Shown here one piece after another: positions 10,489 to 11,591 of a stretch of DNA of 64,000 nucleotides. The stretch comes from a virus (Duplodnaviria > Caudoviricetes). A model generated the notes under the pieces. That model worked only from the letters and a program-made list of their open reading frames with translations, was not told the DNA's origin and did not search any database. The position numbers were made by a program, and so were the translations under genes. Position 1 is the first letter of the stretch, and every line of letters starts with the position of its first letter. The DNA is taken from the IMG/VR virus record IMGVR_UViG_3300008262_000055. One strand, written 5' to 3'.

Positions 10489-11382
10489 ATGCCAGATTTT
10501 GATCCAAGTAAGTTTCAGTCTCAACAAAATGCTGCTCCAGCAGTTAATCCTCTAGCGGCGTTTTTTAGACAACCAAAGATCTATGTTTCTCTGCCGTCAA
10601 AAGGTGAATTTTATCCGGAAGGGTCGTTAAAAAAGACCACTAACAACGAATATCCTGTGTTCGCCATGACGGCCAGAGATGAATTGTTATTTAAAACCCC
10701 AGACGCATTGATGAACGGGGTAGCAACTAGAGAAGTTATCAGTAGTTGCATCCCTAACATTTTAGATCCTTGGAAGATTCCAAGTCTTGATGTTGATGCG
10801 GTGTTATCAGCAATTAGGATTGCCACATATGGCGAGGAAATGGAAGTTTCTGTTAGATGCCCGCAATGTGAAAATCTTAATGACTCTATGGTTGATCTAC
10901 GTGATGTGTTGGATAGATTAAACAAAATTAATTTTGATACCAAAGTTGAAATTGGTTCAGACATGATTGTGTATCTGCGTCCGATGACTTACGAAGAAAT
11001 TACTAAAACTGCGTTGAAAGCGTTTGAGCATCAGCGAATTTTTCAAGTAATCAACGATGATACAATTGAAGAGCAGGAAAAATTAAAAATTTTCCAAGAA
11101 AGTTTTATTAAGTTAACCGATTTAACTATAGATACTGCTGTAAAGTGTATTACAAAGATTGAAAGTTCTGCTGGTATGACTGAAGATCCTGCTTTTATAA
11201 AAGAATTTTTACAAAAGACTGATAAGTCTGTGTTTGAACAGATTAACACCGCAGTGAGCAAAACTAGAGAAACTGGAAACCTTAGCAGCTTTCATAGTAA
11301 ATGCCAAAAATGCGAACACGAATGGGACGTTGAGCTTACTATGGACCAATCGGATTTTTTCGGCAACGGCTTTCGACGTTAA
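10489..11382 (+). CDS. gp26-like baseplate hub/tail assembly chaperone with zinc-ribbon motifs
   Basis: RQPKIYVSLPSKGEFY, MTARDELLFKTPDALMNG, IRIATYGE, CPQC, CQKC and a terminal DFF; adjacent to the tape-measure genes. Confidence 0.8.
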   Translation: MPDFDPSKFQSQQNAAPAVNPLAAFFRQPKIYVSLPSKGEFYPEGSLKKTTNNEYPVFAMTARDELLFKTPDALMNGVATREVISSCIPNILDPWKIPSLDVDAVLSAIRIATYGEEMEVSVRCPQCENLNDSMVDLRDVLDRLNKINFDTKVEIGSDMIVYLRPMTYEEITKTALKAFEHQRIFQVINDDTIEEQEKLKIFQESFIKLTDLTIDTAVKCITKIESSAGMTEDPAFIKEFLQKTDKSVFEQINTAVSKTRETGNLSSFHSKCQKCEHEWDVELTMDQSDFFGNGFRR

Positions 11383-11414
11383 GTATCCCCGAGGTATTAG
11401 CCGAGTCGAAAGCC
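11355..11414 (+). promoter_or_regulatory. Programmed -1 ribosomal frameshift signal
   Basis: Heptamer TTTTTTC (11355-11361), 6-nt spacer, perfect 10-bp stem GGCTTTCGAC (11368-11377) / GTCGAAAGCC (11405-11414). Confidence 0.75.
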
Positions 11415-11591
11415 CTTGATGAACAGGCAAAGCAGATCAAACTGGAAGCTATGCGTTCAGTTTGGTATATGCGTGGCGGATTGTCATTTGCCGAAGCCAT
11501 GAACCTCAGCTGGGACGAAAGAGAGTTAGTCCTTGAGATAGTCAAGGACAACATGGATATTACTAAGAGTTCTGGACTACCGTTTTTTTAA
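11355..11591 (+). CDS. -1 frame extension of the gp26-like gene (GT-type product; resembles the small 'gp51-like' ORF of T4-like phages)
   Basis: Open frame FFRQRLSTLSIPEVLAE...AMRSVWYMRGGLSFAEAMNLSWDERELVLEIVKDNMDITKSSGLPFF*, not in the ORF track; entered through the slippery site T TTT TTC. Confidence 0.75.
   Translation, partial: FFRQRLSTLSIPEVLAESKALDEQAKQIKLEAMRSVWYMRGGLSFAEAMNLSWDERELVLEIVKDNMDITKSSGLPFF

Follow-up and report, generated by a model that had tools for sequence, protein, structure and literature searches.

Introduction

To our knowledge, nearly all long-tailed phages are held to use programmed frameshifting in their tail chaperone genes, with T4 and its relatives as the exception. 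The frameshift that gives rise to gpG and gpGT of phage lambda was reportedly described by Levin et al. in 1993, and Christie et al. are said to have described in 2002 that of phage P2, a myovirus whose tail chaperone, gpE/gpE+E', is made by a -1 slip at T_TTT_TTG. The roles of the T4 proteins gp26 and gp51 in hub assembly have been obscure since the 1970s. In this work, we analyzed a stretch of viral DNA of 64,000 nucleotides (nt) (IMG/VR record IMGVR_UViG_3300008262_000055; the whole stretch is hereafter called the window), and we conclude from sequence comparisons that its gene of the gp26/gp51 family very likely contains a conserved -1 programmed frameshift, through which a form of 297 amino acids (aa) and another of 367 aa would be produced.

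A conserved -1 frameshift of tail assembly chaperone (TAC) genes was reported by Xu, Hendrix and Duda (2004; Mol Cell 16:11), according to the passage of PMC9024508 that cites them. In T4, gp26 and gp51 were described as hub assembly chaperones, with gp51 not found in the particle (Leiman et al. 2010; PMC3004832).

The gene of the window resembles lambda gpG/gpGT in that a nonstructural tail-assembly gene has a -1 slip, here a predicted one, near its 3' end and yields two forms, the longer of them extended at the C-terminus, and in that the gene adjoins a tape-measure-like gene; in phages SP-15, BRock and HTVC008M, the homologous gene is in or near the canonical slot 5' of the tape-measure gene. 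On the other hand, the window protein is twice as large, has a zinc ribbon and shows no sequence relationship to the Pfam TAC families, its similarity to the TAC fold is weak, and its gene is divergent from the tape-measure-like gene, not upstream of it. With P2 gpE/gpE+E' it has in common the contractile tail, a nearly identical all-T heptamer and the two-product logic, but the P2 proteins are small and unrelated, and belong to a P2-like tail module and not to a T4-like baseplate hub context. T4 gp26 (208 aa) and gp51 (249 aa) are members of the same PF12322 family as the window protein, have the C-terminal FF / F-[KR] junction in common with it, and likewise represent a short and a long form side by side. 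In T4, however, these are two divergently transcribed paralogous genes, whereas the window would have one gene plus slippage; furthermore, the protein of the window has about 90 aa more, with an extension of 76 aa against about 48 in gp51.

The Slippery Site and Its Conservation

The putative frameshift site and its surroundings consist of the following features of the window:

10489-11382, + strand: PF12322 (T4_baseplate) gene in the 0 frame, 297-aa short form (Pfam and PHROGs matches, AlphaFold2 (AF2) model)
11355-11361, + strand: slippery heptamer T_TTT_TTC, read in the sequence in the X_XXY_YYZ register, six codons 5' of the stop
11362-11367, + strand: spacer GGCAAC, 6 nt, from the slippery site to the stem (read in the sequence; fold)
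11368-11414, + strand: candidate stimulatory stem-loop with a core of 10 base pairs (bp), 11368-11377/11405-11414 (fold and covariation)
11361-11591, + strand: -1 extension of 76 codons (RQRLSTL...GLPFF) plus TAA, joined after F291 to give the 367-aa long form

The 0-frame open reading frame (ORF) at 10489-11382 ends with the codons GAT TTT TTC GGC AAC GGC TTT CGA CGT TAA, and therefore T_TTT_TTC stands in the X_XXY_YYZ register at 11355-11361. In this register, the tRNA-Phe of the P site and that of the A site would both be able to re-pair in the -1 frame.

For comparison, we used 120 related IMG/VR loci and the homologous regions from 17 cultured phages. Counting the window and four cultured phages together with the 120 IMG/VR loci, there are 125 loci at close or middle distance, which fall into 11 clusters at a protein identity of 50% and into 50 clusters at 70%. 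TTTTTTC is kept in register in all 125 loci (45/45 and 80/80 in the two sets), 3-8 codons 5' of the stop. The residue 5' of FF is variable (N, D, H, S, T); the wobble base is T without exception. Cultured jumbo phages with an in-register TTTTTTC include Atu_ph07, Phosso, 121Q, CBB, RaK2, PA5oct and Salicola SCTP-2, and the same was found in cyanophage Bellamy, while RsoM2USA, Xoo-sp13 and the pelagiphage HTVC008M have TTTTTTT at the slip site.

The short form matched Pfam PF12322 with 59.6 bits (cut-off 24.5; E 4.5e-16) along residues 31-291, and phrog_150, 'baseplate hub', with an E value of 3.9e-21. It has the zinc-ribbon cysteines CPQC (124-127) and CQKC (271-274) and the C-terminal FF of the family at 290-291, and its AF2 model reached a predicted local distance difference test score (pLDDT) of 83 and a predicted template modeling score (pTM) of 0.76. 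Some lineages (L026, L033 and L035) have lost all four zinc-ribbon cysteines (columns 128-131 and 301-306 of alignment A1) and have an EDIAAGAP-like insertion instead, with heptamer and extension kept; because of this loss, the cysteines are not family-defining.

The Downstream RNA Stem

The 5' arm of the stem, GGCTTTCGAC (11368-11377), is the exact reverse complement of its 3' arm, GTCGAAAGCC (11405-11414). This core is lengthened inward by more pairs and an apical hairpin, with outer pairs extending out to 11364-11418, and an inner hairpin, AGTATC/GGTATT, is formed by 11382-11387 and 11393-11398. The fold of RNA 11355-11425 has a minimum free energy of -24.1 kcal/mol (z -3.32), and 0 of 200 shuffles were equally stable.

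Structure at this place is not peculiar to the window. Among 58 non-redundant loci, the 80 nt 3' of the heptamer have a mean z of -1.6 and are more stable than segments taken from the same gene. A helix of at least 7 bp starting at +3 to +9 was found in 33 of these loci, against 9% of 1160 control segments (p 5e-20), the commonest start of the first helix being +7. The 5' arm always falls on the conserved R-x-R-L-L codons. The 3' arm is found, according to the lineage, at +36-41, +53-55, +57-61 or +73-77, which indicates that the stem was rebuilt repeatedly.

Covariation was seen in two groups. In a group of 46 sequences, 92% of the cells are paired, against 34-50% when the arms are slid by 1-3 columns, and 33 cells have double changes, against 9.5 in shuffles (0/500); as an example, an AAG-to-AGG change (K/R) is paired with a synonymous TTA-to-CTA change (Leu). 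In the subgroup of the window, the corresponding values are 82.7% of the cells paired against 28-47% slid, with seven pairs changed on both sides, and a swap from A:U to U:A is seen.

These data also bear on transcriptional slippage, in which an extra U inserted by RNA polymerase at the T run would shift part of the mRNAs into the -1 frame. The run is homopolymeric, such slippage could serve both frame directions, and longer runs are present in relatives: T9 in RsoM2USA (L128, 2262-2275), T8 in HTVC008M, where it reaches directly into TAA (L134, 2364-2373), and T7 in phage RM378, which has a +1 extension. In RsoM2USA and HTVC008M, the polymerase could slip in addition to the ribosome or instead of it. 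For the window and its kin, however, this explanation is very unlikely. For polymerase slippage to be productive, six T are few; 125 of 125 close relatives have exactly T6 and then C, never a longer run, and its register relative to the 0 frame is invariant. Moreover, a structure with compensatory changes at a fixed spacing of 5-8 nt is a hallmark of ribosomal -1 slippage and has no role in slippage of the polymerase. Contigs from lake RNA libraries (X18, X20) cross the heptamer of close relatives without any indel, but rare variants are lost in contigs and the libraries may contain DNA, so that these contigs establish neither a joint transcript nor the absence of polymerase slippage.

The -1 Extension and Its Natural Fusions

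In the window, the -1 frame is open from 11334 to the TAA at 11589-11591, with its earliest ATG, GTG or TTG at 11451, and the shifted product would have 291 + 76 = 367 aa. Across the relatives, this frame is open for another 64-84 codons, or 64-79 among loci with TTTTTTC, and in many loci it opens only 0-3 codons 5' of the heptamer, which pins the point of entry. The extension peptide is conserved from its first residue: FFR is invariant and is followed by R/K-[ILV]-L, ...WYMRGG..., ...ER... and ...KEN.E.TKK.G.PFF. Upstream of the first Met, the entropies of the three codon positions in the -1 frame are 0.90/0.69/1.34, that is, the third-position variation of a coding sequence.

The extension matched no family of Pfam, PHROGs or NCBIfam. 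A tblastn search against phage genomes matched only Atu_ph07 and Phosso, and the near homologues in the protein collection are 89-aa 'hypothetical proteins' with zero Pfam domains. The public records are in error here: those of PA5oct (L126, 2364-2590) and RaK2 (L130, 2325-2545) have no coding sequence (CDS) over the extension, and in that of Atu_ph07 (L001, 3816-4052) the only CDS starts at an internal ATG and has 40 aa.

The same domain occurs elsewhere as an ordinary part of PF12322 proteins. A profile search with the extension matched 455 proteins among 1.84 billion representatives, and about 24 of the best 150 matches belong to PF12322, are 319-351 aa long and have the extension as their in-frame C-terminus, with an x-F-R junction. 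In both contigs with enough context (2/2), the long in-frame gene comes directly after a short PF12322 paralogue ending in ...FFND* or ...FFAK*, and the tandem pair adjoins divergent tape-measure-like genes. Frameshift-bearing relatives have a single PF12322 gene each, in contigs of 79-282 kb. In one tandem pair (L137), the long gene is in the -1 frame relative to the short one. The AF2 model of a natural long form (pLDDT 91, pTM 0.87) places the extension as four helices within one body.

Public records place small CDSs after the gene in Phosso, 121Q, CBB, Atu_ph07, SCTP-2, Xoo-sp13, Bellamy and HTVC008M, as would be expected if the downstream ORF were an independent small gene translated by re-initiation or coupling after the gp26-like stop, from the ATG at 11451 (46 aa) or a noncanonical codon upstream of it, with no frameshift. 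In Phosso, there is an ATG three codons past the heptamer that overlaps the stop as ATGA, and the -1 ORF has an upstream start codon in 9 of the 58 loci. We nevertheless consider an independent start most improbable, since the first start of the window would remove 32 conserved residues, the earliest canonical start is at least 5 codons into the extension in 43 of the 58 loci and at least 15 codons in 30 of them, and the -1 frame of the PA5oct extension has zero canonical start codons. The stretch 5' of the first Met evolves as -1-frame coding sequence, with the invariant FFR starting at the heptamer, and natural proteins bear the extension domain fused in frame. Furthermore, an independent start would leave the invariant wobble T, the fixed spacer and the covarying stem unexplained.

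That there is no recoding at all, the heptamer being FF codons in an AT-rich genome and the -1 ORF a relic or unexpressed, is nearly certain to be wrong in spite of the chance frequency of the heptamer and of the T_TTT_TTY in short paralogues with a closed -1 frame (see below), given that an unexpressed ORF would not stay open, constant in length and protein-conserved with third-position variation across lineages at only 30% identity, and that the extension profile recurs fused in frame in other phages.

Some of our results speak against programmed frameshifting as we propose it. Besides the upstream start codons of the nine loci just mentioned, the heptamer occurs in the window at chance frequency (37 copies observed and 34.8 expected), and the structure is weak in 121Q, CBB and RaK2 (z -1.6, -0.8 and +1.0). 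FF is a motif of the family and is found in T4 gp26 too, and therefore the conservation of the heptamer is partly at the protein level. In addition, the short tandem paralogues retain T_TTT_TTC / T_TTT_TTT (L137, 1675-1704; L139, 5861-5890) with a -1 frame that stops after one codon, which means that the T run can persist without selection for slippage; in these two paralogues, it may be a relic of an ancestral frameshift site. What is above chance is the register of the heptamer, its position, the stem and, chiefly, the conservation.

On balance, independent start, polymerase slippage and absence of recoding each account for less than a -1 frameshift does, which is supported by the heptamer, its register, the spacer, the covarying stem, an extension that is coding from its first codon, the usual lack of start codons and the natural in-frame fusions. 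Slippery heptamer, 6-nt spacer, 10-bp stem and inner hairpin are all found where the original prediction, made from the window alone, had put them; the -1 frame open to 11591, the first start at 11451 and the calculated length of about 367 aa for the shifted product were borne out. The conservation of TTTTTTY plus stem in homologues, which had been proposed as a check, was found as TTTTTTC in 125 of 125 loci and TTTTTTT in RsoM2USA, Xoo-sp13 and HTVC008M, with an enriched and covarying stem.

Relation to T4 Genes 26 and 51

T4 gp26 and gp51 scored 215.6 and 177.5 bits against PF12322 (gp51 along residues 1-201, E 3.9e-52), and gp51 is a paralogue of gp26 with an additional in-frame C-terminal tail of about 48 aa. 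T4 gene 26 ends with GAG TTC TTT GAG TTA CTA TAA, which is not slippery, and is directly followed by gene 25; gene 51 is not downstream of gene 26 but divergent from it. The small ORF that the Bellamy and HTVC008M records call 'baseplate hub assembly catalyst' (gp51) is the -1 extension 3' of T_TTT_TTC/T. The original prediction that the small 'gp51-like' ORF is a frameshift extension thus holds for these two phages and needs correction for T4, in which gene 51 is a divergent 249-aa paralogue of gp26 and gene 26 has no slippery site.

The Bellamy extension matched T4 gp51 residues 200-246, starting from the junction F (BLASTP E 4e-5), and their joint alignment is good, with Y, P and R invariant. 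The profile of the jumbo-type extension matched the equivalent segment of the cyanophage/gp51-tail alignment (hhalign E 1.3e-4). Based on the gp26/gp51 paralogy and on this tail alignment, T4 gp26 is probably the counterpart of the short form and gp51 that of the long form. The comparison has its weak points: the jumbo-type extension and the tail of T4 gp51 show only moderate homology (hhalign probability 53%), the full-length profile of the long form aligned with the gp51 family profile along the N-terminal core alone, and the narrow extension profile gave nothing meaningful in hhalign against the single T4 gp51 sequence. Homologues of T4 gp51 (P0005-P0096) have a second Pfam family, PF28602, in the precomputed annotation, which probably covers the C-terminal tail of gp51.

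More distant PF12322 genes, from Bacillus phage SP-15, Streptomyces phage BRock and Rhodothermus phage RM378, have a homologous extension (with the ...ER... motif) in the +1 frame:

SP-15 (L135), 2400-2660: +1-frame extension, after GAA_TTT_TTT_CAC
BRock (L136), 2520-2790: +1-frame extension, after CTG_TTT_CGC
RM378 (L132), 2450-2710: +1-frame extension, after TCC_TTT_TTT_TGG

The arrangement of the frames suggests that, in these lineages, the polymerase slips or the frame is shifted by +1 (or -2).

Genomic Neighborhood and Possible Role of the gp26-Like Protein

The source of the window is an uncultured freshwater jumbo myovirus with T4-like core genes. Its genes include a portal, two tape-measure-like genes, gp46/47-like nucleases, a late sigma factor, gp5-, gp25- and gp6-like baseplate genes and a baseplate protein of 4890 aa. 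Agrobacterium phage Atu_ph07 and Sinorhizobium phage Phosso are its closest relatives in culture, and Rak2-like phages come next, with about 30% protein identity; a blastn search of the locus against phage genomes gave zero matches. The tape-measure-like genes lie next to the gp26-like gene, on the opposite strand:

7823-10411, - strand: divergent neighbor and proposed client of the putative chaperone, 862-aa tape-measure-like virion protein with an M23 peptidase domain (Peptidase_M23 E 3e-12; TMP_2 E 8.6e-4, below the cut-off)
5340-7823, - strand: second tape-measure-like gene, 827 aa, paralogue of the 862-aa neighbor (BLASTP E 5e-60)

The two proteins have 27% identity along 545 aa (residues 1-545) and a common C-terminal motif in BLASTP, and the M23 peptidase is present only in the first (862-aa) of these tandem paralogues (5340-10411, - strand). 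One of the contigs with a tandem short/long pair (L139) has two large genes (741 and 866 aa) at a place equivalent to that of the tape-measure-like pair of the window. On the other side, a 346-aa ORF (11588-12628, - strand) converges on the -1 extension, its stop sharing four bases (11588-11591) with the TAA of the extension; it had zero matches in Pfam, PHROGs and NCBIfam.

The tape-measure-like gene is divergent from the gp26-like gene in 15 of 15 loci. In the RaK2 record, the homologue of the 862-aa neighbor is labeled as similar to tape measure protein. Mass spectrometry of CBB virions detected 29 peptides of CBB_251, the homologue of the same neighbor, which is thus abundant there, and the gp26-like CBB_250 is absent from the table (PMC5259590). 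The gene order in SP-15 and BRock is sheath, tube, gp26-like gene, small ORF and a very large tail protein, and in HTVC008M the gp26-like gene and small ORF are upstream of a putative tape measure gene. Together with the description of gp26 and gp51 as chaperones (Leiman et al. 2010), these positions make a tape-measure-chaperone role of the gp26-like protein reasonable to infer.

Structural comparisons had less to say. Foldseek found no match in the PDB, the fold matches with three solved TACs (HK97 2OB9, YqbN 3KLU and Rbstp2171 3FGX) were weak, and for the model of the window's own protein TACs were absent among the 50 best matches listed. Searches of Pfam, PHROGs and NCBIfam for membership of the gp26-like protein in a TAC family gave no match beyond PF12322 and phrog_150. 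The predicted complex of the gp26-like protein with the N-terminal 560 aa of the tape-measure-like protein had a score of 0.00, which is neither for nor against binding. Less favorable to a chaperone of the tape measure is that the 862-aa neighbor had no BLASTP match with T4 gp29, its likely identity as a tape measure protein being based on weak matches. The original prediction of a chaperone of the lambda G/GT type stands as to the overlapping frames and the tape-measure-like neighbor, and finds no match among TAC families. Considering synteny, T4 genetics and the weak TAC fold matches, we find a tape-measure-chaperone role plausible, with the case for it and the case against it about equally strong.

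Proposed Mechanism and Implications for T4-Like Phages

According to the mechanism that we propose, most ribosomes would terminate at 11380 and release the 297-aa short form, and a fraction would pause on the stem-loop 6 nt 3' of U_UUU_UUC. There, the two tRNA-Phe would slip back one base and translation would go on in the -1 frame to 11591, giving the 367-aa long form with its 76-aa helical C-terminal domain. The signal, its conservation, the coding status of the extension, its in-frame occurrence elsewhere and the gp26/gp51 paralogy are shown by computation, and the slippage itself and its rate are inferred. As both forms would come from one gene by slippage, the phage would set a fixed short/long ratio. 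The short/long paralogy and the slip signal suggest that one gene plus slippage replaces here the T4 26/51 pair, following the logic of lambda G/GT.

By analogy, we give an even chance to the possibility that the gp26/gp51-type pair works as lambda G/GT does: the domain common to both forms would hold the neighboring tape-measure-like protein, and the extension would dock that protein to the hub or tube. A broader proposal, toward which we are evenly divided, is that the gp26/gp51 family might be the missing G/GT-equivalent tail assembly chaperone of T4-like phages, cyanophages and Rak2-like jumbo myoviruses. One gene plus slip would be the ancestral state, T4 26/51 would be a resolved pair, and SP-15, BRock and RM378 would attain the same by a +1 shift.

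Chaperone frameshifting is known as a kind of mechanism, but neither its occurrence in the gp26/gp51 family nor the reading of T4 26/51 as a resolved G/GT-like pair seems to have been published. In the searchable literature, in which subscription journals are thinly covered, frameshifting of gene 26 or of homologous genes was nowhere reported, so that novelty is unproven.

If our interpretation is correct, gp26 and gp51 would gain a familiar logic, that of two forms, short and long, made in a fixed ratio, to which a slip, a tandem pair of genes and a divergent pair would be three interchangeable genetic solutions. In hundreds of genomes of jumbo phages and cyanophages, the annotation would have to be corrected, the extension being now a separate small gene, truncated or missing. 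The chaperone reading, with T4 26/51 as a resolved G/GT pair, would also explain why gp51 is needed only catalytically and why both gp26 and gp51 are absent from the baseplate structure.

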